NCBI RefSeq assembly: GCF_036588685.1
Contig: NC_086380.1
Location: 10,277,347-10,341,346, forward strand
Length of the DNA: 64,000 nucleotides
Direction of reading: 5' to 3'
DNA from: Mytilus trossulus
Taxonomy: Eukaryota
Made by a program: the position numbers and the translations under genes. Under the pieces are notes generated by a model. That model did no database searches, was not told the DNA's origin, and saw nothing but the letters and a program-made list of their open reading frames with translations. Of this stretch, positions 3,950 through 49,959 are shown piece by piece. Each line of letters starts with the position of its first letter. The first letter of the stretch is position 1.

Positions 3950-4160
3950 GCATGATGGTCAAGCTTAAATCCGATTCGTCTACGCTAAAGGTCGATGGTG
4001 TCCGTCGCTGGAGTGCGATATGACGATCATACCAAAATATTTATAAAGCCAAACAAGTACAAAGTTGAAGAGCATTGAGGATCCAAAATTCCAAAAAGTT
4101 GTGAAAAATACGACTACGGTTATCTATGCCTGGGATAAGAAAATCCTTAGTTTTTCGAAA
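3950..4160 (-). mobile_element. Degenerate reverse-oriented retrozyme-family fragment
   Basis: The reverse complement matches ggattttcttat...tttggaattttggatcctcaatgctcttcaactttgtacttgtttggctttataaatattttgGtatgaTcgtcaTatcg. The HHR position is mutated. Confidence 0.4.
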
Positions 4161-5789
4161 AATTCAAAGTTTTGTAACAGGAAATACATTATTCTTGTTA
4201 TTGTTTAGCGTACGATCTGATAGTTGTCCAAAAAGTGTAATAGTTACATTGCAGTAGTTAGTTTATACGGAATTAAGAGGTAGTTGTTTTTTGTTCGTTT
4301 ATTGTTGTTTATTTAAATTACGATGCTATTTTTCTCATTTGAATTGCTTCACACTAGTTGTATTGAGGCCCTTTGGTCGTAATAAAATACTATGCGGTGT
4401 ACATGCTGTAAGACAAATCGAATGTTCCACGTTAAAGGTCATACTGTAATAAAGGTTGCATTAATTACATCAAGTCATATTGGCAATCATATGATGATAC
4501 TATGCATCTAGGTTGCTGTAATTTTAAGATAAAAAAAAATGTATACTTATATAGAATTATCTAATTAGAAAGTAAAAAGGTATTGTTTTTACTACCCTAG
4601 CTGTTTTTAATTAAATTTTATTTTACAATTTTACAAATTAAGTTAACCTCGAGCTCCTCCGCAATGTTCAAGATTGATATTATTTGTTTCTTTCGTCCTT
4701 TATGTCTTGTGTTATAAAACAAACCCTTAATCTCGACAAACCCTTAATCTCGACAAACCTTCTCCTCATGACACTGTTAAACGTTGCCAACGTTGATAAT
4801 TTGTGGGAAAATACACTGTAGTGTTTTAAAATGAAAAACGCAGATCATCGCACTTTATTAGTGGATAACATTGTCGCACTTAAGGAGTAGGACATCACAC
4901 TTTATCGTGACAATAACGGGTAAAACATTACGAATTAAAACAAACATGACAAATGCGTTGCACATATTTAACCTTGTAATTTTATATCTTTTGACCTATC
5001 TTTAAGTGAGGGTAAATAGATATAAATCAATAAGATTATTCGACATTATTCGAGTAGATAAAAAAGAAATACTATTAAGTATGTGCACTTTGAATAGTCA
5101 CATGTTATTATTTAGTACTGCCTTCACAACCATGGATTTCATTTATAGAAGTTGACCGAATTTTTCACAACTCATTCATTTCATTTAATAAGTGATTGTT
5201 AACTCACTTCTTAACCGTAGATTCATATCTCGTCATAGCTCGTCGAATTGAAAATCAACATAGTTGATGTAAATTGGTTACTACAAATGGAGACGGGAGT
5301 TGGCCTTCAAACGTTTAGAACAACGACGAAAGGCAAGTTTGAAAGATTTATTTTTACTTACGGAATGCTTTATTATTTTATTGCTTCACCATGTTTCATT
5401 TGTGTTATAACATCAGGAATGAGGATTGAATATACAACACAATTCTGATAACAACTAGAGAAGAACAAATGTTCAACGGAAAGATAAACAGTACTTGAAA
5501 AGCTGAGGGCTACGTCGCTCATGGTGAAATATAATCCGATGATAACGATGATTGTCCACAAAGATTCTGTAGTTGTACTCAAGTGTCAATATAGCATAGG
5601 CCGAAATATTACGCGTTTAGTGATTCATTTGAAATGTACATAGGAAATTCATCTGTAAATCAAATAGACAGACTCGTTTTAACAACTAACGAAGGTTATA
5701 TGCGAAAGATATCTTAGTGACATACAAATTAATATTAAAGTCAAAACTTCATGGCAGAAAACTAAAAAGACCGACAGATAATTACAGTA

Positions 5790-8540: not shown

Positions 8541-9320
8541 AAAGGCAACATTAGTGTATCTCTGTTCAAAACTCATAAACCCATGGACAAAAACTAAATC
8601 GGGGTAAGAAACTAAAACTGAGGGAAACGCATTTAATATAAGAAGACAACAACGACACAACATTAAATTTTAACACACACAGAAACAAAATCCTATGAGA
8701 ATAACAAATCTAACATCAAAACCAAATACATGATTTTGGGATAGATAAGTACTGTGACACTTCTTATAGTTATGTGAATTCACACTCAAAAATAAGAGAA
8801 AACAAACGACACAACTGAAAAACAACGTTAAAATGTAACATACACAGAAACGAACTATAATATAACAATGGCCATAATCCTGACTTGGTACATGACATTT
8901 TTAAAGGAAAAAATGGTGGGTTGAACCTGATTTTGTGGCATGACAAACCTCCCTTTTTTATTGACATGTGAAATATAACATCGAAATGACAATACAACAT
9001 TACAAGACTACAATATAAATAAATAGGAGAACATTATTGACAAAGAAACACACAAATAATAGCTAACAAAAGGCAACAAGTTTAAAATTTTAATACGCCA
9101 AGAGTGCATTTTGTCCACACAAGACATACTAGTGACGCCCAGATACAAAAGTTTGAAAGCCGAAACAAGTTCAAAGTTGAACAGCATCGAGGACCAAAAG
9201 TTAACAAAATTGTGCCAAAAACGGCCAGGGTTTTCTGTTAGGTACCAGAAAATCCCTATAATAATTTATACTTTTGCAAACAGTATTTTTTATAAAATGA
9301 CTATACAAAAGATATGCATG
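8541..9320 (+). repeat. Interspersed repeat family B (SINE-like/retroelement-tail-like, ~800 bp composite)
   Basis: It has the head aaggcaac(a)gtagtata..c.gttc.aaa.tcataaa, an A-rich body, and the core cctgacttggtaca...ggtgggttgaacctg.ttttgt.gc...aaacctccc. That core is shared with the retroelement tail at 41700-41790. Its 3' part (9120-9320) is homologous to the reverse retrozyme body. Copies lie at 17570-17930 (+), 60540-61120 (+) and 7590-7995 (-). Confidence 0.55.
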
Positions 9321-10108
9321 ATAAAACTGAAGTATTAACTAATTACAGGAAACAACCGATGTACATTGCATAACCCGCCAAAATGCAACACAAAAAATAA
9401 ACACATCCGAACAAATTAAAACCTTAACGCCAAGTGACGTCATATTTTAAATTCTAAGAAATGACAAAAAAATGACATCACATTTGAATATGTAAAACAG
9501 ATCATCAAAAAATTAAAAATGACGTCACATTTGAATGAATAAGATAGAATTAGGATTGGTTCAAGGTTATAATGAACTAAATACTGATATTACATAGAGT
9601 AACAATGCACATTTCAATACTTATGAATAGCAAACTCAGGTAGCAATTAACTATATTATATAACTATGTCCGGTTTGTTTTGAATCTAACTTCAAACGTA
9701 AAACATCGTACAGATTACGTTGAACAAAATCAAATCTAATAAATGAAGGCGGTGATTAATTTTCTTTACCATTACACATCAATATAATAAAAAAAGACGT
9801 CAACACATTTGACAAAATCCGATGAGAATTACAAATATAACATTAAATATTAAACTGGATACATGAATTTGGGATAGATAAGCACCTTAACACGTAAAGA
9901 CCATGTCACTTCTTGTCTCATAAGATAGCTTTTTCACACTGATGATACATGAAAAAATACCATTAATTTCGAGTTTTGTTTTCATAATTATTATTAGATA
10001 TTTTCTCTGTAAAATGTCAAAATATATATCTGAAACTCCGATAATAAATATTTTGAAGTTAAATGACCTTATTTTTTGTCGATATCTAATATTGTACATG
10101 TTTTCTAG

Positions 10109-11646: not shown

Positions 11647-12248
11647 ATACCCCCGCTTTAAAAAAAAAGGGGGGGGTATACTGTTTTACCTCTGACTGTC
11701 AGTCCGTCCGTCATTCAGTCCTTCCCATGAAAATTTCGTCACATTTTTCTCAGGAACTACAATACAAGGATTTCTGAAATTTGGTTTCAGGATTTATCTA
11801 AGTCAGCTATACTGTGTGATGCGTTTTCAGACCGATCACTTGACAACTTCCTGTTTACCGAACACTTGTATAATTTTACACATGATAGCCAAGTTGAAAA
11901 TTTTCGTCACATTTTTCTCAGGAACTACAACACAAGGATTTCTGAAATTTGATTTCAGGATTTATATAAGTCAGCTATACCGTGTGATGCGTTTTCAGAT
12001 TGATCACTTAGCATCTTCCTGTTTACCGAACACTTGTATAATTTTACACATGATAGCCAAGTTGAAAATTTTTGTCACATTTTTCTCAGGAACTACAATA
12101 CAAGGATTTCTGAAATTTGGTTTCAGGATTTATATAAGTCAGCTATACCGTGTGATGCCTTTTCAGATTCATCACTTGACAACTTCCTGTTTACTGAACA
12201 CTTGCATATTTTTACACTATTAATATTATCCACTTGCGGCGGGGGTAT
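11647..12248. mobile_element. TIR-flanked element containing a 3-copy ~168-bp tandem (satellite-like) array
   Basis: TATACCCCCGC at 11647-11657 (itself part of a hairpin tataccccc-gcttt-a9-ggggggggtata) is the inverted complement of GCGGCGGGGGTAT at 12236-12248. Three tandem units (~11730-11897, 11898-12065, 12066-12230) share 90-95% identity. Confidence 0.5.
11730..12230. repeat. Tandem repeat, 3 x ~168 bp
   Basis: The unit is gaaaatttcgtcacatttttctcaggaactacaatacaaggatttctgaaatttggtttcaggatttat.taagtcagctatac.gtgtgatgcgttttcaga..gatcactt...ttcctgtttaccgaacacttgtataattttacacatgatagccaagtt. ORF 11816..12223 (135 aa) is an artefact of this periodicity. Confidence 0.8.
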
Positions 12249-12539
12249 CACCAGTGAGCAGTAGCTCGCAGTTTCACTTGTTTCTGTTTGTAGTAACTTA
12301 CTGACGTTTTTGTTTGTAACTCTTATGATGCAGCGTTAGTGCAAAACCTTCTCAAAGAAAAGAAAAGAAAGGCATCTACCCATTTTTTTCTTATTTGCGT
12401 TGGATATATTGATTATAATCAAATTACCAAAATAAGTGCTCGTATCACATATACCTATGTAAACTGTGTATTCAAGGTATTACCGAAACTAGAAGGCTAC
12501 TTCAAAGATAGATTTTCACATCGAAATTGACACCGAAAG

Positions 12540-14200
12540 GAGATTCAAACTAAAATATTTGACAAACATTATGATGTCAGCTTTACAAATGTCCACTACA
12601 CATTTCCTACTATACCATACATCTTTCACCATCGTATGGCATGTATATATATCAGTCCAGTCGTAGATAATCCCATACATACTTTATTTTTATAATTGAT
12701 ATTAAAAGAACATTGGTATTAAAGAGGTGAATTCTTCAAGTTTAATTGAAATAAACATGTAACAGTGTGCAAAGTGATATTTAAGAAAAAAAACGGACAA
12801 AATTCAGTGGAAATCAGCTCTGATTATTTCTACCCTAGAAAAGCATCAACAATTGTGTTTAATAATATATCATAGTATCTTTGAGGTATAGTGATAAAAG
12901 CTACTGACAGCCAATGACGATTATTGAAATCAAACAATATATTTCTTTGCTTTTGTTGAAATTCAAATGATTATATAGCATGGAGTAGAGCTTTGTCAAA
13001 TGATGTTATGGAGAATATTTTTTGTTCAACTAAAAACTACCTTAAAATACTTAAAACATTAGCTCTTGTACGCAATGTGTTTTCCTACTTCTAAATGTTC
13101 AGCATTACAACGCCATTGTTTAGTTTATGACAGAGTAAACTTTGCAGTAAATCTGGGGAAAAAAAACCCATTTGTTCGCATTTTTTACAGGTGAAAAAGA
13201 AAGATAAAATTGTGCTTAATGAAATGTCTTTCCAATTCATATGCTTGATTAAGTGTTGATGCGTAAAATGAAGCTGTGAAAAATATCATTTTGATTGGAT
13301 AATAATTTCAAATCTGTGTGTCCATCGATAATGTCGTAGACACTCATCTACAATATATATGCTTCTTTGAAACAATGTTAAAAAACTGAAATGCAGATTC
13401 AAACTAAAATATTATACAAACATGATGATGTACGCTTTACAAATGTCCACTACACATTTCCTACTATACCATACATGTATCTCCATCGTATGGCATGTAT
13501 ATATCTCATTCAAGTCGTAGATAGTCCCATACAGACTTTTTTTTTATAGTTATGATTAAAAGAAACCATAGTAAGAGGTGAATTCTTCAAGTTTTATTCA
13601 AATAAACATGTAACAGTATGCAAAGTGATATTGTAAGTAAAAACGGACAAAATTCAACGGAAATGAGCTCTGAATATTTTTACCTTAGATTAGCATCAAC
13701 AATTGTGTTTAATAGTATATCATAGTTTTCCCTTTCTTTGAAAAATAAGGATCAAAGCTACTGACACCCAATGACATTTATTGAAATCAAACAATATATT
13801 TCTATTGCCTTTGTCGAAATTCAAATGATTTCAGGGCATGGAGTAGAGCTTTGTCAAATGATGTTATGGAGAATATGTCTTGTTGAATTAAAAACTACGT
13901 TAAAATACTTTAAACATTTGCTCTTGTATTCAGTATTACAACGCCATTGTTTAGTTTATGACAGAGCAAACTTTGCAGTAAATCTGAGAAAGGTGAAAAA
14001 GAAACATAAAATTGTGCTTAATTAACTGTCTTTCGAATTTATATGCTTGATTAAGTGTTGTTGCGTAAAATGAAACTGTTAAAATATCATTTTGGTTGGA
14101 TAATAATTTCAGATCTGTGTGTCTTTCGATAATGTCGTAAACACTCATCTACAGTATATTTGCTTCTTTGAAACAATGTTAAAAAGCTGAAATCAAGTTC
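12540..14200. repeat. Tandem duplication of an ~860-bp segment (copy 1 12540-13398, copy 2 13399-14200; ~88% identity) in the intron upstream of HSPA12-like exon 4
   Basis: Each copy starts gattcaaactaaaatat...caaacat.atgatgt...ctttacaaatgtccactacacatttcctactataccatacat. Each ends tcatctaca.tatat.tgcttctttgaaacaatgttaaaaa.ctgaaat. Copy 2 lacks a ~35-bp stretch present in copy 1. Confidence 0.8.
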
Positions 14201-14262
14201 TTGTAAAATGATATCAATGTGTACATATATTCAAGTGAGATTCTTAACCTCAAACATTTCAG

Positions 14263-15311
14263 GCGGCACAGCTGACATAACAGTCCATGAAAAAATCAAT
14301 AATGGAAGACTTAAAGAGATATATTTTGCATCCGGTGGTAGTTGTGGGGGAACGTCAGTTGATGCTGAGTTTTTCAATTTGATGGAGAAAATCACCAATC
14401 CAGCAATAATGAATGCATTAAAAGGAGAACATCTTGCAAGTTACCTTGATCTAGCAAGAGAGTTTGAAAATAAAAAGAGATCAGTTAAACCTAATACCAC
14501 TGGGCGAATAAATATGAAAATACCAATTGCATTGAATCTTGTTTGTAAGGAATATGTGGGCCAAACTTTAAAATCCGTAATAGATTCTTCAGAATTTTCA
14601 TCAAAAGTGTCACTGAAAGGAGACAAAATAAGATTTGAATTTAGTCTTTTTAAATCTTTATTTCAGTCAAGAATTGATTCTCTGATTAAACTTATGTTAG
14701 ACATTCTTTCCGAGAAATGTTGCGATGGAATAACTCAAATCATTTTGGTCGGAGGTTTTTCACAATGCATGCTTGTTCAAAAGGCAGTAAAAGATACCTT
14801 TCCCAAACTTCCAGTTATCGTGCCAAAGAACTGTGATTTAGCCGTTATGCAAGGCGCAGTAATGTTTGGTCACCAACCAAGTATCATAGCTCACAGAATA
14901 TCTAGGTGCACATATGGGTTTAGGAAGAAAAAACCATTTGACCCTGCAATTCATGATCAGAGTCACCTTGAAATAGTAAATGGCGAAGCCAAGTGTATCC
15001 GTCTATTCGATGCATTTCTTAAGCGTAAGGAACCCATTCAACCAGGCAAAATTTTTAAGACAACGGCTATAAGTCGACCAAGCGAAGGCGGAGAATTCAA
15101 ATTGTATATTTTCAAAACAGAAAAAGAAAACCCCATGTATACGGACGAAGAAGGGTGTTCCGAATTAGGAGTAATCAAAGTTAAAAAACCAAATCCAACG
15201 ATTACTGAAAAAATAAAAGTACATGTGGTTTTAGGGGAAACAGAAATACAAGTAAACATTTCCGGAACTGAACTGGGCAAGAAACACAGAGTTACGATTG
15301 AAATGATATAA
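14263..15311 (+). CDS. HSPA12-like terminal coding exon 4 (to TAA stop)
   Basis: A 'aacatttcag|GC' acceptor completes the glycine codon split from exon 3, giving DLGGGTADITV, the HSP70 connect/adenosine motif. The exon encodes 349 codons to the stop at 15309-15311, including ILVGGFSQCMLVQKAV and CTYGF. The six-frame ORF 14208..15311 over-extends 5' into the intron. Confidence 0.9.
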
Positions 15312-15836: not shown

Positions 15837-17569
15837 TAAAATCAAAATATATTATTGCCATTCATTATGAATAAATTTCTAAAAAAAAAAGGCTCAAAGA
15901 ACTGTTTATATAATTTGAATTAACAAAAACAACGTACAAACATGTTGGCGTATGAATACTCAATGTAATAGTGGGCGTGTCGCCATCAAAATTGAAAATA
16001 AAACTAATAATTTTAACCAACCAGAAGACAGTAAATACACCAAATTTATTTATTATTGATTAACAGAGAGAAACCCTGTATTTCTTGTAAAGACAATTTG
16101 ACCCCTCTCTAGAATGCTTGACTAATGCAGTAAATTGTTAACAGCATGCAATAGATTGAGTTTTTGAGCAAATAATTTTATAAAAGAGGCGAAAGATACT
16201 AAAGGAATGTTCAAACTCATAATTCATAAACATACTGTCAATGTTATGGCCTAGTGCGAAATAAACCAACACACAATCAATAGTACACAAAACACAGCAA
16301 AGAATACTGAGCCACATGAACCCCACCAAAATCTTTGGGTGATCTCAAGTGCTCCGTAAGAGTACGCTAAATGTGGCATCCGTTGTGTTGCTTGCTATTA
16401 AAATTCACGTCATTTGAGAATGTAAACAAACTATTTCATTCGAGTAAGTTAAGTATAAGACCGAATTGACACAATATTATAAAACCTCAGTTCTTTTGAA
16501 AAATATTTTATTTCAACAATATTTAGATAAAACGTATTGAATGTCTTTTTAATCAGAATAAAATCATCAAAGAAACTAGTCTTAAAAATAAATACGCCAT
16601 AGGAAGACGTGCGTAACGTCTAAAAACGATCCATGATTAATTGAATAGAATTTAAAAAATCAAAGTAAAGAAAGAACGAAACAAGCTTACTCGATCTTCA
16701 ATACGTTAGTACTAAAAAGGTAAAAATCATCATCATTATAGTAAGCTTTGAATTTTTTGAATCGGAAACATAAATCAAGGTAAATTAAGATATCACAGAA
16801 CATAAATCAACTAGGAAAAGACATGTACTTTGTAAATAAACCAGAAAAAACAAATAAAGAGAAATATTCCATAATACAGTCCTCAGAAAAAAATACTTCA
16901 AGTATTGTATATCCTCCGTTGGACTGATGACATAAGGAGAGACATAAAATACAAAAATACATAAGAGCCACTCTCTTACACCGTAGATGAATTATTACAG
17001 AGAAAAAAAAAATAAAGAAACATTTTTAAAGAGTTATGAAAAACGAAATGTGGACGGAATGATATTTGACACAAATGAACAGGTCGGTTTTCACAATAAA
17101 TCTCGCCCTTCCAATGCGCTATTCTGGTATTAGTTTTTTATAAGCACTCAAACCAGCCCGAACATTTGAAAGCTAAGAATTTGAAGGCTCGGAAAAGCTG
17201 AACATCTCAAAGAGACATTGTAAAACAGCATAAGTTTACCGTTGCTAAATTGTATTTGAATCTTAGTTGTTGTTTTTTTTTAAATATTTCAGGATATTTG
17301 AATATCATATGTAAAGAGGGATATGAGTTCTTTTTGTTATTGAAACCATAAAGGCCAGTAACTGTATTATTTTTATTCGTCATAATTTCCAGTGACATTT
17401 CTACTATTTTAATCTGGAATGTATGTGTCTTTCATCTGTATTAGATACTCAGCATTGTTTGTCTATAAAAGTACGTTTTCATTTCCAACGTACATGTTCG
17501 GTATAGTATTCTGGTTTGAATGATATAAATTTTACAATGAGTATGTACTTTTTCATTAGAAATTTTAAA

Positions 17570-17930: not shown

Positions 17931-18435
17931 TACGTCAACCTACATACACTATGCCGGATGCAGTTTAATCCCAAGCTTCTTAATAATTTGTATATTTATA
18001 AACAAGTAATTTGAGAAAGATTTGTATAAATCATGTCTAAACCAATGTACCGCCTACTGAGCTGATACTAACTTCAGATGCTGATAGACCACCTGCAATG
18101 TCGACCTAATGATTAAAAAAAAAAAAGAATTAAGTAGTCAATATAAGCATAAATACAGTAGAACATGTTTGTATATTCATCTTGAATTTTATATATAAGC
18201 AGTGAACGTAATTGTTTATAACTCATTGGTCGATATGTTATGTAGCAAAATGTGGTATATCAGAATGCAATAGCAATTAAGTAGTTCTTTATTTGGTGAT
18301 AATATCTAAACACTACTGATCGTCACAAATTTTCAAAAGTAAACTGACCAAAAAATAGTAGAAATCCGTTCTGGCGTTAGCACTAGTGTGTCTTCCTTCA
18401 ATAAATCTTTAAAACCAAAGATCCCTATTTCATAT

Positions 18436-18482
18436 GAGCGTCACTGATGATCTTAATTAGACGAAGCACGCGTCTGGCGTAC
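18436..18482 (+). ncRNA. Degenerate hammerhead ribozyme motif (upstream partner of the dimer)
   Basis: gagcgtca-CUGAUGA-ucuuaauuagac-GAAGC-ACGCGUC|uggcguac. G10.1 is lost and the GAAA box is mutated to GAAG, so it is probably catalytically impaired. Confidence 0.5.
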
Positions 18483-18810
18483 TAAATTATAATCCTGGTA
18501 CATTTGATAACTATTTGCACAACTGGATCAATGCCACAGCTGGTGGACGTTTCGTCTCCAAGGTTAACGCCAGCCCAGAAGTCAATACTTCGGTGTTGAC
18601 ATGAATATCAATAATGTGGTCATTTTATAAATTTTGTTTTTACAAAACTTTGAATTTTTCTAGATACTAAGGATTTTCTTATTTTGCCGTATTTGGCACA
18701 ACTTCTTGGAATTTGGATTATAAATGCTTTTCAACTTTGTACTTGTTTGGATTTATAAATTTTTTGATATGAGCGTCACTGATGAGTCTTATGTAGACGA
18801 AACGCGCGTC
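18475..18810 (+). mobile_element. Retrozyme-like unit (~336 nt) delimited by two hammerhead cleavage sites (head-to-tail HHR dimer 18436-18818)
   Basis: Two HHR copies lie in direct orientation 336 nt apart with a homologous intervening sequence. The unit is also found at 63556-63859. This size and arrangement match small non-autonomous circRNA-forming retrozymes reported in metazoans. Confidence 0.6.
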
Positions 18811-18818
18811 TTGCGTAC
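18771..18818 (+). ncRNA. Type-I hammerhead ribozyme motif (apparently intact core)
   Basis: gagcgtca-CUGAUGA-GUC uuaugua GAC-GAAA-CGCGCGUC|uggcguac. All invariant positions are present (C3 U4 G5 A6 N7 G8 A9; G12 A13 A14 A15.1; U16.1-H17 as GUC). Helix II is a 3-bp GUC/GAC with G10.1-C11.1. Helix III is the palindrome ACGCGCGU, as in dimer-acting Penelope-like-element (PLE)/retrozyme HHRs. Helix I pairs GAGCGUCA with UUGCGUAC. The predicted cleavage site is after C18810. Confidence 0.7.
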
Positions 18819-21800
18819 TAAATTATAATCCTGGTTCCTTTGATAACTATTAAGTTGCACTTATCCTCTTTGGAATTTTATTGAAACCATTATAATTTGG
18901 TTGGCATTGTGTAAGACATTCGTCATTATTAAAACCAATGTCATTTCAACTGATCGGACGGAGCTTGCGTTTCATTTACATAAAGACAGCCTATTGAAAG
19001 TTGTGTGTGATAAGGATGATGGCCTCTATAATTATAATTGATTTTTAATCACCTATCAGTGTCACAAAACGGATAATCACATACTGAGTGTATGATATTG
19101 GATGAATAACTGGATATTTCATTGACGAGTTTATCACGACACACCTGTCTGTGGTTGGGCAGGTATTAAATAAGCGATCCAGTTAACCTCGACCAGTTAA
19201 GTGAAATAAATCAAATAATACAACAGATAATTTGAGTAAAGTAATAGGTAGATAAAATAATGATTTCATTTATTTGATGGAACAATATTGCCAATCAGAT
19301 TTTGGTTTAACGTGCCAGACTTTTTAAAAATTATCAGTCAATTTGGAGAAAAAAAGTGAAACATGACCGAAACAAAACACCCACCTAACTTTCCTTTTTT
19401 AGTTAGAAATTTGAAATGATTTGTTCGTATGTGTCTGATAATTCAAGAAATCTCTGGATAACATTTGGTTAGAATGATAGCAAATTACATAGTACTATAT
19501 CTTGAAAAACAACAACAGGAAAACGAAACGGACATATATTTGCGCATTATTATACAGTTTGATGTACTCTTGGTGTACTCTGATGTTCTTCCTAACTTAT
19601 GTTTACTGTCCAAGGGGCAGTAACTCTACATCTTAATAATAGATTGTGGAATACATAGTATATTATACTTCTTCAAAGGTTTTTTGTATATTCTCTTTAA
19701 AGAACATAATTATTTTGTAAATGATTATAACTTAAGAAATTTTCGCCCAAAATTGTATTTTCGTTCTTCTGAATCATTTTGTAACTAGTGATTATTTCTA
19801 AACAGTTTATGAAAACACAACAAAGATATTTTGCACGAGGTTCAAAATATGATTCTTTTTACTGCATCATTTTTTTCTTAAATATAGCAATGGACGAATT
19901 TGAACAAAAGTGCCGCATCGAAGGTGAGTCTCACCAATGGGCCAGTTATAGAAAACAAACGTTCATTCACAAATATATCATTTAAAGAAGGACCCAAATG
20001 CATCATCTTTGTTTTATTAATCATCTCAATACTGAAACGTTTACTTTCCTAGCCTTTGTTCTGATTTAAGCAAACATCTTCACATATATACAATCATTTT
20101 GGTTTTTGTTTATAAACTTGCAGTCTTGGTTTTTTTTTAAATTTGGAAATAAAATAAGGACAGCAACACTGAAGTAGTTGTCTTTAATTTATTTCAACTA
20201 ATTATAAGCATCTTTGTTTTTTTCATATCCATTCAATTTTAAATATCTGAACATTTTATATATGTACGTGAAATTCCACCGTTCTTCTGAATATGCGAAG
20301 CAAATTTTCAAATTATTTAAACTGATCAATTGATATTGCATGTAACGCTAAGTATCTATAATATCTTAATACCGAATTAAATTAAGATCTAGTTTATAGT
20401 CTGATTCATTAGAATGATGACAATGTCTATCCCGTTTTAGTGTTTTAATTGTCCTGGGCTTTGTTGGTATTAAACAAATGTTAACTTCTATTCCCACGTT
20501 ACCGTTGTACATTGGAAAGCAATAAAGAATGGCTTATCGCTGTCATGACATTTACTACGATTCGCCGTTTACATTGACTTAAATATATTATTGACACTCC
20601 ATCCTGTAGCATACTGTTGCAAATCTCTTCCTGGAAGTTTTCTCAAGACAAGTATCTTATGTACCTTTAATCGGTTAAATGAATTGATTTGCTAGTTTGA
20701 AAGTTAGATTGATTTTTGTACGTTTTAATGTTTAACGGAGGTTTGCTACTCAGTTTACAAAACATACAAGTTTTCCATAACACTAGTATATATTGATATA
20801 AGATTAATAAAGGAACAAAACAAAACAAAATATATAGGTCAATGTGCTTGTTTTCGAGATAATAGCCATTGAAATTTTGGCATGAAATTGTACTCTCTTG
20901 ATTTTTCATAGCTTTATCATTGACAAGTTCTCAAAAACTATAAAAAAAAAATTACAAGGATTTTATAAAACTGTTACAGATGACTTATAAGTATACATGT
21001 AAAAGAATTATAAAAAGAAAAATGGGGGTCAATGTGCAAATGTTTTAAGGCATTCAAATGGGTAAACCAGAGGATTCTGAATATCTAACAAAAATTCAAA
21101 ACAATGACACGCGAACATCCTTAATGCTTGAAATGCTCATTAACATGTTTTATTTCTTCTAACTTATCGTATGTACTATCTTACTTAAGAAGCATGTAAC
21201 TTTGATTTTCATCAGTGCTCATTTTTTGTATTTGAAATAAATAAACGTTCGTTGTTTTTGCGTATAATTTGATAACTATTTATCATTCAGGACCTTATTT
21301 AATTCCTCAACGGTATGTGTGAATTATTGAAGCCATATGATGAGCTATATTAGAAAATTATAATATAGTTTTTGTTAAGGTGGAAAGTTTCTTTGATTGA
21401 CATCCTTATTTCTAAACTCAAATGTTCTCAATCGTTAAATTCATAATAAAGTTCAGTTTCCTTTCAGTCTTATGATTTTGTTTTTTAAATTACATGGCGA
21501 GGCACGATGTATACCATAAAATACTTACTGCACATTTGTTGATGATTCATTCTTAAAACAATTTAAGTTATTTTCTCAATGAAACATACATTTCTTGTTG
21601 TACTTGAAATATATAATTATTTATATCGTGCATTCCAATTATATCATACATCATACAAAAGATATAAAAGATCCACATATACATTTGTATAATTTGTTTT
21701 TCTCATCAGTTCTACATTATAACGTATTAGTTCTTTCGGTCAGTTATATTTGTCAGTACACTCTGTCGTTTATTCTTTATTTCCAGATTAACATTGGTAC

Positions 21801-22575: not shown

Positions 22576-24534
22576 GTCCTGTCGAGTGTTAGACCTGAGC
22601 AAAGATAGATGCGGTTTCGACCAGTTTAAATTTCTTTCACAAATAACAAAACATTTCAATCTAATTCTACTCAAACTAATGTGTTGTTAATAAAGACAAA
22701 ACTGAAATGATCACTCCTGGCATAAGCTGAAATAGAAGTCACTTGCATCAAAACTGGTTCCTACTGGTTTCGTCAATATGTACACTAGGAACACTAGAAA
22801 TAATGCTGGAAAGACAACAAAAATTCACAAACCGTAAAATGAGGTCCTCTGTTTTGTCATAAAAAAATTGTTCTCCACCGATTCCATTGTCATTTTTAAA
22901 ATATGAAGCAGTGCACAAGACCGTGTAAACAAAAAGTTTCCAATCAATGTGAAACCCAAATGGTGTATAGCATTGAATCTTGGTGCAAAATGAAACATTT
23001 TAGCATGAATTTAAAACACAAAAGAAGAAATTTTAGAAGAAATTGATATATCTATGTAACAAATGCTGTAAGTACCAATAGATTGCTTATTTTACTGTTT
23101 TTCAACTGTGAAGGTTTTGACATTCAATTATCGACATTTTAATAGACAAATTTATGTAGATAAGAAATATCATGATGCCAATACGTTTACCAATAGTGTT
23201 AACATTTCATCTCCTCATCATAATAGAACATTGCGATAGGGTTTCGGTTTTGTCTACATTTGTTTATTGAAGTGTCATCAGGAAGTTTTGTCAATATGTT
23301 TGCATTGATGCAGTCGAGAAGAATGCTAACTTTTAAGACTTCTTTAATTTTCTTGAAGTAATATAAAGTGAGTTTTTCACAGATTCGTTTGTATACGCCC
23401 AGATCGTGTGTATGTAATTGAGATAAAACAATCAGGTACTAAAAAAATCTTGAATGAGGTTCATTCTGTTTCAAGCACATTATGCTAACACATAAATAGT
23501 TGCCTATCTACGATCTAATCCAAAAACCAGTGAGTGTTCAAAGTTAATGTTCGTTATTTGAAATAGAACATTGGTTATGTGATGAGCTGTTGGTAAGATG
23601 TCAAGTAAAAAAGAACTCAAGCGGTCTAAGTAGGACTTCATCAATAAAAAGGGTGCCAGATGGGATCACACTCTTCCAGTAAACTCCCATTTTTGTATTG
23701 TTTGTTTTTTGGCCCTGTATAAAACTCTGTTCAGCTAGATTTTAGCTACCCAGTTTAAACAGCTCTATAACAAACTTATTTTACAAACACATAGTGTAAT
23801 CCATTAGGATCTTCTTTTTCGTCAACAAGATAACTACAACACATCCTTCTTCAATCGAATCATCGGATAACAAATTCAATATTTTTGCTTTATAATCAGT
23901 TTTTTGAGATAGTTATTAATTTTGTTCATTTACCGATCTTTATTACAAACAGCAAAATTCATTGCTCAATTAATTCAAGTATGATGTCGAAAAAGAATAT
24001 TAATATTATTTATTTCAATCAGTAAGATGTAACAGTTGACGGTAGACATGTTTGCTAAAAATTAAATATGTGAGCATATTTTAATTTGCTGTTCTGTAAA
24101 TTCAAAATAGGTATACAGATGAAGTCATATTGACATGAAAGAATCTTTCAAACCGTTAAATATTAGTTAAGGGTTTGAATAAACAATAAAAAAAAATAAT
24201 AATATCGAAATCCAAGGGATATTTGAATTGGAAAGTCGATTATCAAATGCCAAAATGAAAAGCTTGCTTTTATACACATCAATTGAATGGTACGCAAGTA
24301 TAATAATCCTTACCGAAGTTCAGTACTTTTGCTATTTTACTTTTCAGTATATATTTCTAGACTTCAAACATGTATTCTCCATCCCAAATTAAAAGACAAA
24401 TATAAAAAGTTGGTATTGCTTTTTTCATATAAAAAAAAAGTACGGCAAACGTAGATACAAGTATCTTGTCTTAGGGAGGGATAAATACTGCTTTGTAAAG
24501 AATCACTCTGATTCAAAATATCAAAATCTCTGAA

Positions 24535-24716: not shown

Positions 24717-26019
24717 TTAGCAATATACTTTAACTTTACGTTCCGCTATTTGAACTCATGAACTTTTCATGTCTATGTAGCAACATTCCAACAGCACCTG
24801 CATACAGAGTATATATCTACAAACTGATACAATATGCTTGTAATTCCTATCATTTTTATTTGTCTGTTTGTGTTTTTCTTTTTTAGCCATGGCGTTGTCA
24901 GTTTAATTTTTTGGATCTATGAGTTTATTCGCCACTCTTTCGCGATGTTAGTGTATTTGTTCTATAAGTGTAATCCATATCCATAAAACCTGTTGAACTT
25001 TTATATCTTAATGAAATAGTAAAACGACATTTGGCTTGAATCTCGCATAACCCAATACACTTGAAATCAATGATACTACAAAGGATATTAGGTAAGCTTT
25101 TTATTTTTGTTATTTAGACATTTTCCTTAATAAAGATACACACTAATTGACAGCAATAAAATTGAGAATGGAAATGGGGAATGTGTCAAAGAGACATATC
25201 AATCCCATATTGACTACGTCGTATTCTTGGGCAGTAGTATACTATCTTCATCTGCATAGATGTTTAAGTTTCTCAATATACTGAATTTGAAGTCCTCGAT
25301 GCCCTTCAATTTCATATTTTATGGTCTATAAAAAGTTATTTCGAACCTCAACGATGAATCTTTTGTAGCATGCACTTTCACTACCTTTTGTTTATAAGAT
25401 TTGTCAGCGATGGTTCTCGTTATAACAATTTCTTATTTTTTTAGCAAACGTATTCCACATGATAAAATGTCTCCCGACACTCATACATTGTCATATGAGT
25501 TTAATGTATGCGGAAATTATCATGTCCTAAGTTCCCTCGCCCTTTATGGTCAAATTAGTATTTTTTTCACCTCTTATCAAGAGTTTAAAGTTTCGTTTTA
25601 AATTCCCTTTTAAATTTTATGAACGCCATTACGAGTTGTCAGACTGTTTTGCATATCTGTTTCACGAATAACGACATATTTATTATAGGTATAATAGTCA
25701 TAAATGTCACCTTCTTTGTGCTTTTATTACCAATGATATGACCATGGGTTCCACATGTGGAGCAGGACCTGCTTACCCTTTGGCACACCTGGAATTACCT
25801 CCATCTTTTAATCGCTAAGTGTTTATTTGTGTATGATTTGTGTACTGTTATCCGTCTTTTCGTATTTTAATTTTGTATATTGTTAGTAGAATAACGAGAT
25901 TTGAACAATGGTAAGCTACATTTGTCCCTAAATTAATGGTATTTATAAGTGGATGCCTCCTTCGTTAGATTTTCAATGTTCTGTGTTTGACAATGATGTG
26001 TTTGTACAAAGGTGCATGA

Positions 26020-26215
26020 CGGATGTGGAGCAGAATCTGCTTATTCTTTCGGAGATCATCCCAAGTTTTTGTTGCTGTTCGTGTTGCTTAGTCTTTAGTT
26101 TTCTATGGTGTGTCGTCTGTACTACTATTTGTCTGTTTGTCTGTTTGTCCTTTTATTTTTAGCCATGGCGTTGTCATTATATCTATGATTTTGACTGTCC
26201 CTCTTTTGAATATAA
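26020..26215 (-). repeat. Family C copy (reverse orientation)
   Basis: It reads gtggagcagaatctgcttattctttcggagatc...tttttagccatggcgttgtcattatatctatgattttgactgtccctct. Partial reverse copies also lie at 24870-24960, 25745-25830, 31915-31990, 52385-52450 and 61600-61680. Partial forward copies lie at 16255-16400, 32950-33050 and 62090-62310. Confidence 0.5.
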
Positions 26216-28894: not shown

Positions 28895-29575
28895 CTGAAA
28901 ATATATATAGAACATTGTAGTAACTTTATGGGAAATGTAAAGTCAAACATATTTTGTTATCCAAATTACGATCGCTATTTATCCGACTTATTGTTTACAC
29001 ACTGGTCAATAGGAGAAAACATATTCTCAAGTATAGTTTTCTGTTTTGTGGGCTTTTTCGTTGATCTTTCAACCCCAAAGCCAAATATTTTACCAACAAA
29101 ATGAAGTCTAGCAACAAGTATAAAGGTAAAACAGAGAATCTACAAAAGAAAATTCTACATGTCTATCGACAGAGCTGAAATTCTGCCTCAAGTATATTTT
29201 TGATAGATTTTTATCTTAAGTCTTTCAGCAGTCATCTTCTTTTTTATATATTCGAATATTTGTTTGCCAACTCATCTTACATTTTGTAAAGATGGTAAGC
29301 CTAAATTCAACAATGTATAAGACTACGTTACCCTTGCAGTGATGATTATTTTATGGTGTTTATTGCATAAATGTTGACAGAAACTCCGATCTTTTTGGTT
29401 GACCGCAAATTCACTTATAAAAATGATTAAAGAATAACATTGTATGTTAATACATTAAAAAGCAAAGGTACCATTAGGGCATAGCACTTGTTTATATAAA
29501 CCAATTTTTCATTTATAGTGATATTCATCATGCCGCTTTGTTTGTTAAACCTGCAAATCATATTACAGGACTTAC

Positions 29576-29942
29576 CTGCCGATGTTTGTAGATATAACAC
29601 AAGTGAACTAATGCTGTAGACGTATCTCTCTCTGATACAATTTATCAATATTCCCAATATCACAGTGACTCCAAAAGAAAATGCTCCTGTAGAAATTAAC
29701 AGAAACGAAGCTTGCCACGCTCCAGATGGTATGTTTGCTAGACCAAATGTTCCGCCGTATGTTTGGCACCGACTTTGAATTTGTTGATCCTCGGTTGATA
29801 ATCCCTCACAGAATACTGTCAATCCAAATGAATGTATATGGTTATTGTGTATATACCATGCAGGGTTAAATATACAAAATATTGTTAAAATTGTTATAGC
29901 AATTGTCAACAATATCCATATGGAATACACAAGTTTGTTCAT
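29576..29942 (-). CDS. Four-transmembrane membrane protein (PMP22/EMP/claudin-superfamily-like), coding exon 1
   Basis: Minus-strand ORF MNKLVYSIWILLTIAITILTIFCIF...NPAW..FGLTVFCEG...C...AWQASFLLISTGAFSFGVTVILGILINCIRERYVYSISSLVLYLQTSAG. It ends at a strong donor GGCAG|GTAAGT (plus 29571-29580 'cttacctgcc'). It contains two hydrophobic TM segments with a Cys-containing first loop (G-L-x3-C-x12-C). Confidence 0.6.
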
Positions 29943-34015: not shown

Positions 34016-34674
34016 AATTCCGTTACATTTACATGATGCGTTAAATAAACAGTCACAATCAATAAAATAGTCAAAATTTGGGAACATCAGTCATCATCGT
34101 ATAACAATTTAACAGGACACAACAACATCTACTATCTACGAACACATGGATTGATTTGAGTGTCTGACGTCAGAAAAATTATATACGTCACATAAATTTG
34201 TCGTTCAATGTGCATACAATAGTTATCCAAAGTACCTGGATTATAAACAATTTTAAATTTTACATAGGCAATGAGCGCAGACAGGGTTAAAAAATCAAAA
34301 GTATGTAAGTAAATGTGCACACAATAAGTACCGATTGGAATACCGATTGTCTGTCAAAAAATCAATCCTAGTAACTCAACAAATTTAGAATCAGAAATAC
34401 TCTTATCACCCAAAAATTGAAAAATCCCATTTTGACGGAAAGGCTTTCTTATAATGAGACGATATAGTCGATTGAGCATGAAAAATCGTAGTGTAAAGCA
34501 TGAAAAATCAAAGGTCTTATTCTTGCTGCAAAATTGCAAAGATCGAGACCTAAGATTTAACAGGAGATCTTTAGAATTTGTTAGAATTTACATCTGATTA
34601 ACACCACTAGTATATCTCATCACAATATTTTCGAGAGCCATATTATATTTAGAAAGAATAGTGGTCAGCACTTA

Positions 34675-34910
34675 AGAAAAATAGGGGAAAAATATACCAG
34701 AGGGACAGTCAAACTTAAAGATCGAAAACTATCAGACTTCGACACGTTTAAAAAATAAAAAGACAAACAGACAATTATTAGTTAACAGTACACAACATAG
34801 AAAACTAAAGTCTAAGCAATCCGATCTCAGGTGCTCCGGAAGGGTAAGCAGATCCTGCTCCGCATGTGGCACCCGTCGTGTTGCTCGTGTTATTACAATT
34901 CCGGTTAATT
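34675..34910 (+). repeat. Family C short interspersed repeat (~240 bp, SINE-like; same sequence as the RT element tail at 38215-38465)
   Basis: The 5' region taccagagggacagtcaaact.a.agatcgaaaa...aaactgacaacgccatggctaaaaat is shared by family copies. The 3' core ggtgctccggaagggtaagcagatcctgctccgcatgtggcacccgtcgtgttgct is present in this copy. Confidence 0.55.
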
Positions 34911-36134
34911 GTCTAAAAGAAAGATATTTAGTCGATCATGTTGATGATCCAGAAATGCTATCCAGTATAATGATGATAAATTTTCTTCGTTTTGTTTTAT
35001 GTTGATGCAAAAAGAAAGGAAGACAGATTTTGTATCATATAATTTGTCTTGCCCTTTATCAAATGTAACATGTATGATTCGAAATATAACACTTGAACAG
35101 TTTAAATATCATTTTACAAGGTTATTTCCGATATTTACCTTTCTGGAGTAATGCTCATTTTTAGATTTTAGAATGCGTCACTTGTTTATAAGCAGTTAAA
35201 TAAAAATAACACTGTATATTTCGTACGTCTAAAGTTTTTGTCTGGATTACCATTCTTTGGAACAGTTGGAGGTCAGGTAGGTATATTATCTTAAACAAAT
35301 TACGAGTATTTATGACCAAACTGAACTAACAATTAGCCAAAGTCGTCTAAAGGCAACACTACCTTAGGGAGCTAAAAACCTTCTTAGACATGTGTAAATT
35401 AGAATTTCAAATACTAGGTATGTTTTACATTTCTGTGGACTCATTAAACTTCTAACGTAAGTCTTCGGTCCATTGTTATCGAACATTGTTATCCTGGTAT
35501 CTACGAGTTTATTTATACCTTTGCAACCAATACTCTTTTCGTTGTGCTGAAACTGTTTTGACATTTCAACTCATTTGATATAATTTTACATTTTCCCAGT
35601 AAAATGTATATGAATGGTTTTGTTAACTGCATTTTCTTATTACAATGACAGAAAATTAAAAAGCAAAAATAAATGCATAAGTTAATAAATGCTCAATCTT
35701 ATTTTCTGCTATAACTTGATCTAATAAGAAAACAGTGTCCATAAGAATTTGCTTGAAATAAAAAAAAACATCCATAATCAAACATCGTAGATTTAAGATT
35801 CATCAAAAAAAAGAACGGAACATTTTGCTGATTAATCGGCTATTTCTTATATCCTTGGGAACAGCGTACAAAATGTCAAAAAGAAAAATTCAGACAGCAA
35901 ATAAATGTTGTCATCATATTTAGTTTTAAGCTAAAAGTATTGCTAAATATGACAACTCTCACTGTCAAATGCAATTTAATTAATTTCTATATGTAAAGAG
36001 AAAGTGTTTTCGATTCCCTGTAGCTTTGTGAAACAATCAGCGGTACTTTGATATGTCTACATAGATTAACATCTGAACGGCGTTAAATATTGTTTTCAAC
36101 AAATGTTTTTTAATGACATCTCACTTCATTATAC

Positions 36135-36245: not shown

Positions 36246-38214
36246 GTACGTTTTTTTTTCAAATACAAAATTGAATTGAAAGCTTCAATTTTTATCTCAC
36301 AAATATTTATCGCGTTATGTGACCAGCCCATTTAAATAAGGATTCCAACAAAACCAATGTACACGTCTTATAGCTTAATATATTCTGTTTTTGATAAAAT
36401 ATGGCTCAGAAGGAAGATTTCAGAAAAGAAAATTTGACAAGTTGATGATTTGTACTTTCAAGTTATCTATTTCTCATTAGAAAACATACATGATGAACTA
36501 TCGTTTAGTTTACAAATATTTCAATGAATAAAATATACTCATGCATGTACAAACTATATTGACTTTTCAAGAAATGTGTGCGTCTGACATAAATTATGCC
36601 GCAACAGGGTTAAACAGCTTTTTAAACGAAAATTACAAAATCTAGCAGAAATACGTCTTGGTAAGTGTACAGTGGCGTGGTTTTTTTTTCATTTTGTGGT
36701 ACAAACAATGAAATTACACAGAATGCATTAGATTTTAAAAAGGGGAATTACAAGGCATCATTGCAGCTACACTTTTACAGGTATAATCATAGAAACACAC
36801 TTAAGAGTGTGATCGTTTGTAATTTTTTTTACATCAATTGAATAAACTCTAATTACAATATTGTTGAAATTGCTATCTTATTCAAAAGAGACGATATTGA
36901 CGAGGTGTATGACCGCCCAAGGACGACATGAAAAATATGCTTCTTTTAGGTCCTTTTATGAAAAAAAATACTTGATCAATTATATTCTATTTTGAAGCTA
37001 ACAAGAACTCATATGATTGAATCGAATTATGCTTGGAGTTTCTTCTTTGTCTGGTGATACAAAAACAAATTTACACTTAACAATCAGTTGAAATTCTTTC
37101 ATCAGCAATTAAGAAACAAACTGATTTAAAATTTTATGATTAAATTATACAGTATGTCTACAGTTTCCTAAAATCATTGAATTACCGATAAAATCAGATG
37201 AAAAAACAATTTGCTTTTCTGCCTAATAAAAAATGACGGTTATAAAGCTAAAATGAAATAATTGATTTTTAAATCAAATATTGTTAACATACTAATTGTG
37301 AACTTGTATTGATCAAGTGCTTTCTGATTTTACAAGTATATTCATTTTTCTTTTTTTAGTAAAAAAATACCTTGCTCAGTATGACACAAATGCTTTCCAA
37401 CACGATTGATCAATTGTAGCATAAAAGTAGTCAAATGGATGTCTGATTTGAAGCTATTTCTATTCGGTTGATCAACTTAAAGGAATATTTTGAATGGGCG
37501 TGCATTCTTTATCTTTATTTGATTACTATTTATGAGATTTTCACCCATATTCTACAAAATATTATGAACTGTCTGTTATACTTTGCTTCATTAGTTTTTC
37601 GGTGTATGAATGGCATTCTCCGTACACTCATGTGGAAACTCGCCTCGCTATTGTGTGATTTAAAGTAATACATTATATCGGATGAAAGAGATTAGTAATT
37701 AACTTCTATTCCGTTTGGATTATAACTGATGTTGTCGATGAGATAGAGGCAATTTAAACAGCCAACATATTCGTCAGTAACCTATTGTATCAACAGAGTT
37801 TGAAAAGAATTCGCAAGAAAAACATCCGTGGCAAATATTCACTGATTAGTTTTGTTTAAAATAGAATGTATGCTGCAATTACTTATTAAACGGCCAAAAG
37901 GCAAGGCAAAGCTCAACAGTGTTGTATGAAAGAGGTGCGCGTCAGAAGCGCTGTTGTTTTTTTTGCCGGTATCTTTCTAAAATCATACCACCTCCTTTGT
38001 TCTATCAGAAGTAATATGTGCAAAACCGGATCTCCCTAGCTTGAGTTGTTTTTATTCTAAATTCTTTGTTCTGTTCTGTAACGGTTTTGCGGGTATGTAA
38101 AATTCATAATAAAAACTAAGAAATATTTATACGGAAATAACTAACTATCAAAAATTATTTTGAAAACAAATCAGTGCATTTGCTTGGAATAGAACATGTT
38201 ATATAGTAATATAT

Positions 38215-45600: not shown

Positions 45601-46698
45601 TAGAGGTGTAAACTTCCTCCGGCTAAGGTGACCTTGAATTAACCTTACTATTATGTAGGTGTTGTTGTTTGCCCACCTGTTTTGTTTCTTCTGCATCATT
45701 AGCTCGGAAATGTTTTGATTTTATCATTCTTGATGAAGGCAAATCAAGAAAGGGGTCCAGACATAAGACATCTATATCGGTTTTTGTTCTAGTATACTTT
45801 AGACCGTAGTAAATTTTCATTTGACCAATTCTACTGTTTACCTTTATTATTATTTTATTCTCACAAAATTTTCTTTAGAAATTCTTTATTTAAGATCTCA
45901 ATTTTGATAATAAAATGATTTCCAAGAAAACATCACAAACCAGTTTTGTTTTAACCTGAAATAGTTTTATTAGTAAGTGGCATTGTGTATATTGTATATC
46001 CACGATACATTAAAATACACGACAACGAAATATTGGTAACTATATATTCTCTCTTTCAATTCAAACGAATATTAGAACCTGAATGCATAATTAAGTGTGT
46101 CACTGAAATGACTCGAGAGAATTTGTCGTCTGTGATCAACAGCTGAGAGAAATGCCAGGCTCCTATGTTTTGTGGTTTATTTAATGAAAACTAAATACAA
46201 AAGACTTGCTTCAATTCCCTGGCTATCATTTCGCCTAAACACAAAATTAAAACAAAATTAGTTTTTGGTTTTGTAATGATTTCAGTTCCCGCTGAATAGA
46301 ACAATATGATGAATAATGGGAAGACGCAGATAGAAGGAATTTTTGTTTGTAATCGGTATGACTCATATTTTAAATTAAAGAATTTTGTTCCCTTTCTTTT
46401 TTCACATTGTTTTGAGACAGAAAATCGCTCTGTCACTTGTCACGTGTTCTGAGGGATGCATGGGAGAATGAATAGTTCTTTTTTTTCAAATACTACTTTC
46501 ATGCTACGGCTTAACAACAAAAAATCGTCGACCGTTGAAAGAAAAATATAATGCATAATAATTATAGAGTAAAACACATAAAAAATATTTTATAACATAA
46601 TGTCAGTTGCTGTAAATAGTATATATCAAGATCAACTTTAAATAATCACCAATGCTCTTCAACTTTGTACTTGTTTGGCTTTATAAATATTTTGATAT

Positions 46699-46746
46699 GA
46701 GCGTCACTGATGAGTCTTATGTAGACGAAACGCGCGTCTGGCGTAC
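46699..46746 (+). ncRNA. Hammerhead ribozyme motif (intact core) in a solo retrozyme fragment (46650-46790)
   Basis: gagcgtca-CUGAUGA-GUCuuauguaGAC-GAAA-CGCGCGUC|uggcguac. It is identical in its core to the 18771 copy. The flanking 50 bp upstream and 'ctaaattataattctggtacttttgataactat' downstream match the retrozyme unit. Confidence 0.65.
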
Positions 46747-49898: not shown

Positions 49899-49959
49899 AT
49901 ATTCCAAATAAAAACAGAAGAGAAACCAATCATTTCATCATTGATACCAGGATTGAAAT

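Follow-up and report, generated by a model that had tools for sequence, protein, structure and literature searches.

We analysed a 64,000-nucleotide stretch of the Mytilus trossulus genome (assembly GCF_036588685.1, contig NC_086380.1, positions 10,277,347 to 10,341,346 of the forward strand; hereafter the window, in whose numbering all positions are given). The window is AT-rich (31% GC) and contains a short repeat with hammerhead ribozyme motifs. Self-comparison and BLAST mapping delimit this insertion, locus A, to 18430-18851 (+), where it comprises 1.26 head-to-tail units (422 bp) of non-coding sequence with a GC content of 0.35. A first-pass annotation, made from the sequence alone, had proposed a head-to-tail pair of hammerhead ribozymes in a retrozyme-like unit that generates circular RNA (circRNA). 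On the evidence set out below, it is very probable that the element is a Mytilus non-LTR (long terminal repeat) retrozyme, built on a type I hammerhead and inserted in M. trossulus as a non-coding stretch of 1.26 units.

In the downstream part of locus A, at 18773-18816 (+), lies a type I hammerhead whose catalytic core is intact. Direct reading of 18300-18950 located every invariant hammerhead nucleotide in this segment, whose sequence is GCGUCA-CUGAUGA-GUC(UUAUGUA)GAC-GAA-ACGCGCGU-C, with UUGCGU following the cleavage site. The reading agrees with what the first-pass annotation had described, namely the CUGAUGA and GAAA motifs, a 3-bp helix II with a 7-nt loop, a GUC triplet after which cleavage is predicted between C18810 and U18811, and a helix III formed by the self-complementary octamer ACGCGCGU. 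Helix II may alternatively be taken as 4 bp, the U-A pair counted, with a 5-nt loop. Judged by its sequence, 18773-18816 is a genuine type I hammerhead motif, in which helices II and III are closed and helix I is open. The Rfam model Hammerhead_1 (RF00163) scored it at 28.1 bits (E = 1.2e-4, local 800-nt scan), and it is identical at 42/44 positions to the ribozyme of Mg353, a retrozyme of M. galloprovincialis. The full set of core nucleotides (C3-U-G-A-N-G-A9, G12-A-A14, A15.1-U16.1 and GUC) is present at 18779-18810 as well as at 46707-46738 and 63820-63851. Helix I of the segment has a G1.2 to U change, which gives one C-U mismatch.

The second hammerhead position, at 18438-18480 (+), was found as had been proposed: a mutated copy in the same orientation, with exactly 336 nt from one cleavage site to the other and, between them, sequence homologous to that of the unit's other copies. 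Its core is damaged by the loss of G10.1 and by a change of GAAA-C to GAAG-CA, in which G replaces A15.1 and one nucleotide is inserted, so that the segment reads GAAG-CA-CGCGUC; the cleavage triplet GUC and the U after it are kept at 18472-18475. The Hammerhead_1 score of this copy in a local scan, 14.1 bits, was not significant (E = 5.3). Mutagenesis of hammerheads has established that the A15.1-U16.1 and G10.1-C11.1 pairs are both required for activity; the upstream core has lost G10.1 and A15.1 and should therefore be inactive. The proposed pair thus stands as two hammerhead positions 336 nt apart, but the upstream member, without the G10.1-C11.1 pair and A15.1, does not stand as a working ribozyme.

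The monomer between the two GUC sites (18475-18810, +; 336 nt) has no open reading frame (ORF) longer than 34 amino acids and could be aligned end to end with Mg353 at ~75% identity. A search of the flanks of locus A for additional decayed units found no more homology. Given that the upstream ribozyme is defective and that helix I of the downstream one is mismatched, the release of a 336-nt RNA by double cleavage at this locus is doubtful. By inspection, the downstream core and the upstream substrate strand may form a 6-bp helix I and a helix III of 4-5 bp, and the upstream site could conceivably be cut by the downstream core in such a double-hammerhead arrangement. Locus A is probably a decaying insertion of 1.26 units that would undergo a single cleavage at best and is most likely not an active source of circRNA. 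The description of locus A as a circRNA-generating unit of two ribozymes is thus borne out only in part.

BLAST of the unit against the 64-kb window, followed by MAFFT alignment, mapped the remaining copies. Two copies on the plus strand, already listed in the first-pass annotation at 46650-46790 and 63556-63859, were recovered. Copy B (46645-46778, +; 94.5% identity over 46651-46778) is 5'-truncated to ~0.4 unit and carries a hammerhead at 46701-46744 (+) with a perfect 6-bp helix I (GCGUCA/UGGCGU; Rfam 33.0 bits, E = 2.2e-6). Copy C (63556-63892, +; 85% identity over 63561-63893) is ~1.0 unit long, with a single hammerhead at 63814-63857 (+; 27.8 bits, E = 4.4e-4) whose helix I has a G-G mismatch through a C2.2 to G change. 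The 25-nt core CTGATGAGTCTTATGTAGACGAAAC of locus A recurs without change at 46707 and 63820. The pattern CTGATGA-N6-30-GAAAC was matched four times in the window against 0.32 expected, a number that none of 100 shuffles reached, and three of the four matches share this identical 25-mer. The fourth match, at 23241-23281 (-), lies outside the repeat family, has neither helix II nor helix III and gave no covariance-model match; it was judged to be a chance occurrence.

Six diverged copies on the minus strand came in addition to those listed before. One, at 61720-61876, is a 5'-truncated copy of a second subfamily that is 89% identical to Mg353; its hammerhead (61751-61794, -) has the core CUGAUUA and a mutated helix II (22.5 bits, E = 0.026). 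An old, heavily decayed copy of nearly unit length at 9057-9385 has a destroyed hammerhead core (CUAGUAU..GACAAAAUGCACUCU), a fragment at 4021-4177 is broken within the hammerhead, and another at 49939-50071, belonging to repeat family D12, has an internal deletion in the hammerhead. The last two are a short internal fragment at 61033-61111 and a ~40-nt stub at 34209-34250 (BLAST, 34209-34246), which consists of the 3' tail of the unit only and ends at GATAACTATT. Apart from locus A, the copies are at most one unit long and occur as solo or truncated insertions, dispersed over both strands between unrelated flanks, not as arrays.

The identity of the family was determined by comparison with Mg353, a cloned genomic retrozyme of M. 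galloprovincialis whose sequence is given in Suppl. Table 2 of Cervera and de la Peña (NAR 2020; PMC7229834). Identity to Mg353 was 75-79% for copies A and C (~75% for A over the full 336-nt unit). The 44-nt ribozyme of copy B is identical to that of Mg353 at 43/44 positions, the sole difference being one base of loop 2; the corresponding segment, GAGCGUCACUGAUGAGUCUU(A/U)UGUAGACGAAACGCGCGUC followed after the cleavage site by UGGCGUA, matches Mg353 save for that base. The minus-strand copy at 61720-61876 carries ...UGGCGUAUAUAUAAAAUUUGGUCC, the target of primer 109D of the same study (PMC7229834). Two retrozyme subfamilies thus coexist in the window, a main one, which includes A and C, and the Mg353-type one (61720-61876). 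Outside the ribozyme, alignment and an RNAalifold consensus indicate a conserved hairpin, GCUGGUG...CACCAGC, at 18539-18574 (+), in whose inner stem GGACG/CGUCC replaces GGAGA/UCUCC of Mg353 by two compensatory pairs. An 8-bp hairpin, GUCAAUAC-UUCG-GUGUUGAC, at 18581-18600 (+) is shared by copies A and C and a tandem array on a metagenome contig (L002), and is absent from cloned Mg353.

The biology of the M. galloprovincialis family has been described in that study (PMC7229834). The mussel genome holds ~5000 hammerhead copies within repeats of 350-390 bp, and the hammerheads fall into two families (A and B), distinguished by their loops 1 and 2 and by the upper portion of helix I. They lack most of the canonical nucleotides for tertiary contacts between loop 1 and loop 2, and helix III of invertebrate hammerheads is drawn as 2 bp with a tetraloop. 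Mg353 self-cleaves in vitro as a single-ribozyme construct with a kobs of ~0.1/min. Unit-length linear and circular RNAs were seen by northern blot and RT-PCR (reverse transcription polymerase chain reaction), with northern blots showing abundant circRNA in gonad and mantle, where circular forms outweigh linear ones; RtcB circularises ~30% of monomers, compared with ~1% for self-ligation. Mobilisation by a Penelope-like element (PLE) has been proposed, in which the primed circRNA is reverse-transcribed into tandem cDNA.

The window copies share the features by which retrozymes are recognised: the type I hammerhead lies in a short (~170-400 bp) non-coding repeat of low GC content, with a unit of 336 nt here and of 353-355 nt in L002, and the units are arranged head to tail, locus A with 1.26 units and two hammerhead positions and L002 with at least 2.5 units. 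The assignment to the metazoan retrozyme class, already made from the sequence alone, is borne out by this type I hammerhead in a short non-coding tandem and by the full-length homology to Mg353. The family has been known since 2020 from the sister species, and the M. trossulus copies belong to the same family. The element is not a new discovery, because a homologous family, its ribozyme activity, its circRNAs and their circularisation by ligase have been published for M. galloprovincialis. By analogy with Mg353, the core-intact window copies may undergo Mg2+-dependent self-cleavage, leaving 5'-OH and 2',3'-cyclic phosphate ends, and unit-length linear and circular RNAs may be expressed in M. 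trossulus as they are in M. galloprovincialis.

Several observations weigh against the retrozyme reading of this DNA. The upstream ribozyme of locus A is, as described, defective, and no clear target-site duplication was seen at the insertions, the only candidate being TTTGTGT at the 9-kb copy. No hammerhead of the window reaches the curated gathering score of RF00163 (34 bits): the best scores 33.0, the three core-intact hammerheads (28.1, 33.0 and 27.8 bits) fall 1-6 bits short, and a whole-window Rfam scan at gathering thresholds reported no hammerhead, only a selenocysteine insertion sequence (SECIS) element. The first-pass annotation had named a covariance-model search as a check, with the lack of a hit counting as refutation. 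The outcome was divided, there being no match at the gathering threshold but significant E-values (1.2e-4 to 2.2e-6) in the local scans, which were judged by E-value.

Folding with ViennaRNA was likewise unfavourable for the monomer. The canonical fold has a free energy of -0.4 to -3.4 kcal/mol, compared with a minimum of -8 to -10, the 62-nt hammerhead region is no more stable than its shuffles (z = 0.24), and the 336-nt circle does not exceed its shuffles in stability (z = -0.6). Since hammerheads with a 2-bp helix III depend on tertiary contacts or dimers, these values are uninformative rather than contradictory. When two molecules of the consensus-like copy B hammerhead were folded together, the minimum-energy dimer was a double hammerhead in which an 8-bp helix III joins the two (-29.5 kcal/mol, compared with 2 x -9.2); for the actual pair of locus A, the double hammerhead was not the minimum-energy structure. 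The folding check suggested at first thus succeeded for the copy B dimer but not for the canonical monomer or the locus A pair. The palindromic, loop-less helix III, read in the first-pass annotation as the signature of a dimer-acting ribozyme, does not prove that dimers are obligatory, as Mg353, with an identical helix III, cleaves as a single-hammerhead construct at ~0.1/min. Dimerisation of the mussel hammerhead would therefore be possible but not required.

Covariation added no support: the 12 aligned hammerhead copies show zero compensatory changes, and for six units RNAalifold returned an unfavourable (positive) covariation term together with non-canonical pairing over the hammerhead, the units being few and too similar. 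Because the copies are so alike, covariation neither supports nor refutes the hammerhead fold. In the same 12 copies, 92% of the pair cells are standard under the canonical fold, compared with 18-50% when the partners are slid.

How the insertions end bears on how they arose. When metagenome contigs were scanned for the exact ribozyme, five matched (L001-L005); a scan of viral contigs for the ribozyme gave no match. On L002, at least 2.5 units of 353-355 nt each follow one another in tandem, and L003, L004 and L005 hold truncated copies. On L003, two copies, one of each subfamily, lie in inverted orientation ~750 bp apart (1687-1857, +, and 2613-2682, -); no reverse-transcriptase ORF was found between them, and neither L001 nor L003 encodes a reverse transcriptase. 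When the insertions with a visible 3' end were compared (A, B and C, the 34.2-kb stub, the 9-kb and 61.7-kb copies, and those on L003, L004 and L005), at least nine independent insertions from the two subfamilies, in the window and on unrelated metagenome contigs, were seen to stop at a common 3' end that lies 40-41 nt downstream of the site of cleavage. This end has the sequence GATAACTAT(T), or GATGAGTTTA in the Mg353-type subfamily, and for each of these independent insertions the BLAST alignment stops within query positions 419-421. At the 5' end the insertions differ, the shortest being a 40-nt stub and the longest exceeding 2.5 units. The combination of a fixed 3' end with variable 5' ends is a small new point.

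Since every insertion keeps 40-41 nt beyond the cleavage site, we infer that the template must have been joined across that site, as a circle or as an uncleaved multimer, and that its reverse transcription must start at a defined position. A fixed 3' end with variable 5' ends is the pattern expected of target-primed reverse transcription from a fixed point on such a joined template. Taken with the experiments in M. galloprovincialis, from which the whole cycle in M. trossulus is extrapolated, the process may run as follows. Head-to-tail copies would be transcribed, and the hammerhead would cut after GUC to give unit-length RNAs with 5'-OH and 2',3'-cyclic-phosphate ends. A tRNA ligase of the RtcB type would circularise these RNAs, and the circle, or an uncleaved multimer, would be copied in trans by a reverse transcriptase, probably from a PLE. 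The cDNA would then be inserted elsewhere as tandem or partial copies.

The alternative that survives best is that the copies spread like a short interspersed nuclear element (SINE), by retroposition of linear, uncleaved read-through transcripts with the 3' end ...GAUAACUAUU, and that circRNA is a by-product. All insertions share the same 3' end and keep 40-41 nt beyond the cleavage site, which excludes a ribozyme-cleaved linear monomer as the template, and most window copies are shorter than one unit and dispersed in SINE fashion. A ligated circle, however, is equally continuous over the cleavage site as a template, and copies that exceed one unit (1.26 at locus A, at least 2.5 in L002) are readily explained by going round a circle. 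Neither a poly(A) tract, nor a terminator, nor any other feature accounts for a linear 3' end fixed at GATAACTATT, and circRNAs dominate over linear forms in mussel tissues (PMC7229834). We consider retroposition from linear transcripts unlikely.

It is very unlikely that the unit is the pseudo-LTR of an autonomous, coding PLE and not a separate, non-autonomous retrozyme. In canonical PLEs, the pseudo-LTRs do contain type I hammerheads and insertion gives 5'-truncated partial tandems, a 2026 preprint relates vertebrate retrozymes to PLE pseudo-LTRs and supports their origin from PLEs, and reverse-transcriptase fragments of PLE type occur in the window. Those fragments (38515-39245, 42097-42594 and 56122-56286, all on the minus strand), however, are unlinked to any copy of the unit and belong to the Naiad type, in which canonical hammerheads are lacking. 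Within the unit, no ORF exceeds 34 amino acids, no ORF lies in or beside any copy, and the flanks are unrelated; at locus A and in L002, the repeats follow each other directly, head to tail, without a coding body. PLE hammerheads, moreover, are atypical minimal variants (PMC7229834), whereas the one described here is canonical.

Still less credible is the idea of a satellite or tandem-repeat DNA spread by unequal crossing-over or segmental duplication, with the hammerhead as an inert relic. Type I hammerheads of newts and other animals were first described in satellite DNA, and some window copies are clearly dead; but copies on both strands, with unrelated flanks, a common 3' end and differing 5' truncations, bear the signature of retrotransposition, no flanking sequence common to the copies was seen, and the homologous family in the sister species is transcribed and catalytically active (PMC7229834). 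Chance hammerhead-like motifs in AT-rich DNA, which the lack of a match at the Rfam gathering threshold and the evidently accidental CTGATGA...GAAAC at 23241-23281 (-) might suggest, can be dismissed with near certainty in view of local-scan E-values of 2e-6 to 1e-4, four pattern matches where 0.32 were expected, the 92% pairing under the canonical fold as against 18-50% when slid, and above all the homology to Mg353, which already refutes it, copy B being 43/44 identical to an experimentally tested ribozyme.

Under the retrozyme reading that we prefer, the 40-41-nt tail may be the site at which reverse transcription initiates on the circular RNA, comparable to the 30-40-bp 'tail' of PLEs, and a handle that ties the retrozyme to one autonomous partner. 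We offer this only tentatively and with more doubt than confidence. If it were true, retrozyme and partner would be tied by the tail much as a SINE and its long interspersed nuclear element (LINE) have a 3' tail in common, and the autonomous partner could be found in the mussel genome as a reverse-transcriptase-encoding element ending in ...UAAUCCUGGUAC-UUUGAUAACUAUU. The abundant reverse-transcriptase element of the window was considered as a same-tail partner and rejected, as it ends at ~38211-38216 with an unrelated 3' end.

This abundant retroelement lies at 38211-39245 (-) and at ~12 further sites (for example 53162-53382, 34678-34916, 48295-48527, 26017-26202, 16179-16393 and 62176-62452), mostly as 3'-end fragments of ~230 bp with a common terminus near 38211-38216. 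One copy keeps a reverse-transcriptase ORF with FRYIDDV and a weak RVT_1 match, 48% identical to the reverse-transcriptase tail of a second, SECIS-linked element, and the family is probably another Naiad-type PLE family. In the second element, 5'-truncated reverse-transcriptase tail ORFs at 42097-42594 and 56122-56286 (both -) are each followed, ~50 nt past the stop codon, by a SECIS_1-type hairpin, at 41981-42045 (-; 35.6 bits, above its gathering score) and, in the paralogue, at 56006-56070 (-; 32.8 bits). The ORFs belong to a repeated retroelement and not to a host selenoprotein gene; a repeat pair lies at 41514-41813 and 55539-55838, and the 3' ends of the family fall at 41514-42594 and 55539-56286. 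The N-terminal part of this element was not found in the window.

A metagenome relative of the SECIS-linked ORF (L006; 75% amino acid identity) has the Naiad-diagnostic CxC and DKA motifs and a single in-frame TGA (nt 680), eight codons after DKA. Naiad selenoproteins of clams and spiders have their selenocysteine eight codons after DKA (PMC8557442). The TGA therefore falls at exactly that position, which suggests that mussels have a Naiad-type PLE encoding a selenoprotein. L006 and two further contigs (L007 and L008) gave no SECIS. Naiad-type families are reported in the literature to dominate bivalve genomes.

Host sequence was also recognised in the window. An intronless ORF at 14208-15311 (+) is 100% identical over 367 amino acids to the M. 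trossulus 'heat shock 70 kDa protein 12A-like' and belongs to the HSPA12 family, which is expanded in bivalves; the match agrees with the origin of the window from an M. trossulus chromosome. Just upstream of this gene (11728-12233 and 12536-14193) lie a 168-bp tandem repeat of 2.9 copies with 93% identity and a duplicated block of ~800-858 bp (families D8, D15, D18 and D20; 89-93% identity); a 135-amino-acid 'ORF' at 11816-12223 is an artefact of the 168-bp repeat. A further ORF at 29427-29942 (-) matches the Pfam domain L_HMGIC_fpl (lipoma HMGIC fusion partner-like; E = 1.6e-10) and is probably an exon of a host tetraspan gene of LHFPL type.

As a discovery, the element carries little weight, given that the 2020 study of the sister species had already reported the family, its ribozyme activity, its circRNAs and their circularisation by a ligase. 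The window is a clean example of how the family looks in a chromosome-level assembly, most copies being 5'-truncated and scattered, with a single fixed 3' end rather than in arrays. The fixed end constrains the model of transposition to a template joined across the cleavage site and primed at a defined position. For annotation, the lesson is that default Rfam thresholds overlook an experimentally validated family of mussel hammerheads.

When compared with known systems, the LTR retrozymes of plants (PMC4918200) are alike in being ribozyme-flanked, non-autonomous retroelements that spread through circRNA. They differ in carrying type III hammerheads, with helix III open, in LTRs of ~350 bp, in being mobilised by Gypsy elements, and in having a primer-binding site, a polypurine tract, 4-bp target-site duplications, a GC content above 55% and circles of 600-1000 nt. 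Identity of locus A with a plant-type LTR retrozyme is ruled out by the type I topology, the terminal redundancy being only ~86 nt of a simple tandem. PLEs (Penelope/Poseidon and Neptune) are related in having hammerheads in their pseudo-LTRs and as the proposed donors of reverse transcriptase for retrozymes; they encode a reverse transcriptase and a GIY-YIG endonuclease, whereas the window unit encodes nothing, and their hammerheads are minimal variants.

The members of RF00163 (Schistosoma Sm-alpha, newt satellite 2 and cave-cricket pDo500) agree with the window copies in their three-way junction, in which helix I is open, and in the CUGAUGA, GAAA and GUC motifs, and ACGCGCGUC of the window equals the consensus helix III exactly; helix I of the window copies differs from the model consensus, and their 28-33 bits lie just below the curated threshold. 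The amphibian retrozymes (axolotl Rtz331 and Rtz353, newt satellite 2) are likewise tandems of ~330-350 nt with a type I hammerhead, a palindromic helix III that allows double-hammerhead dimers, and circRNA. Unlike the mussel hammerhead, which cleaves singly, theirs need dimerisation for efficient cleavage (1-bp helix III), and they share no sequence with the window unit outside the catalytic core.

The closest system is the retrozyme of M. galloprovincialis. The ribozyme core, helix I, the helix II stem and helix III of Mg353 are identical in copy B, with one loop 2 base differing; in both species, the head-to-tail repeats are non-coding and have a low GC content, and two subfamilies coexist, set apart by loop 2 and by the sequence past helix I. 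The unit of locus A is shorter (336 nt, compared with 350-390) because of a deletion of ~17 nt, the window unit has an extra 11-nt segment, lacking in Mg353, that completes the UUCG-capped hairpin, and the window copies are mostly dispersed insertions of less than one unit rather than arrays.

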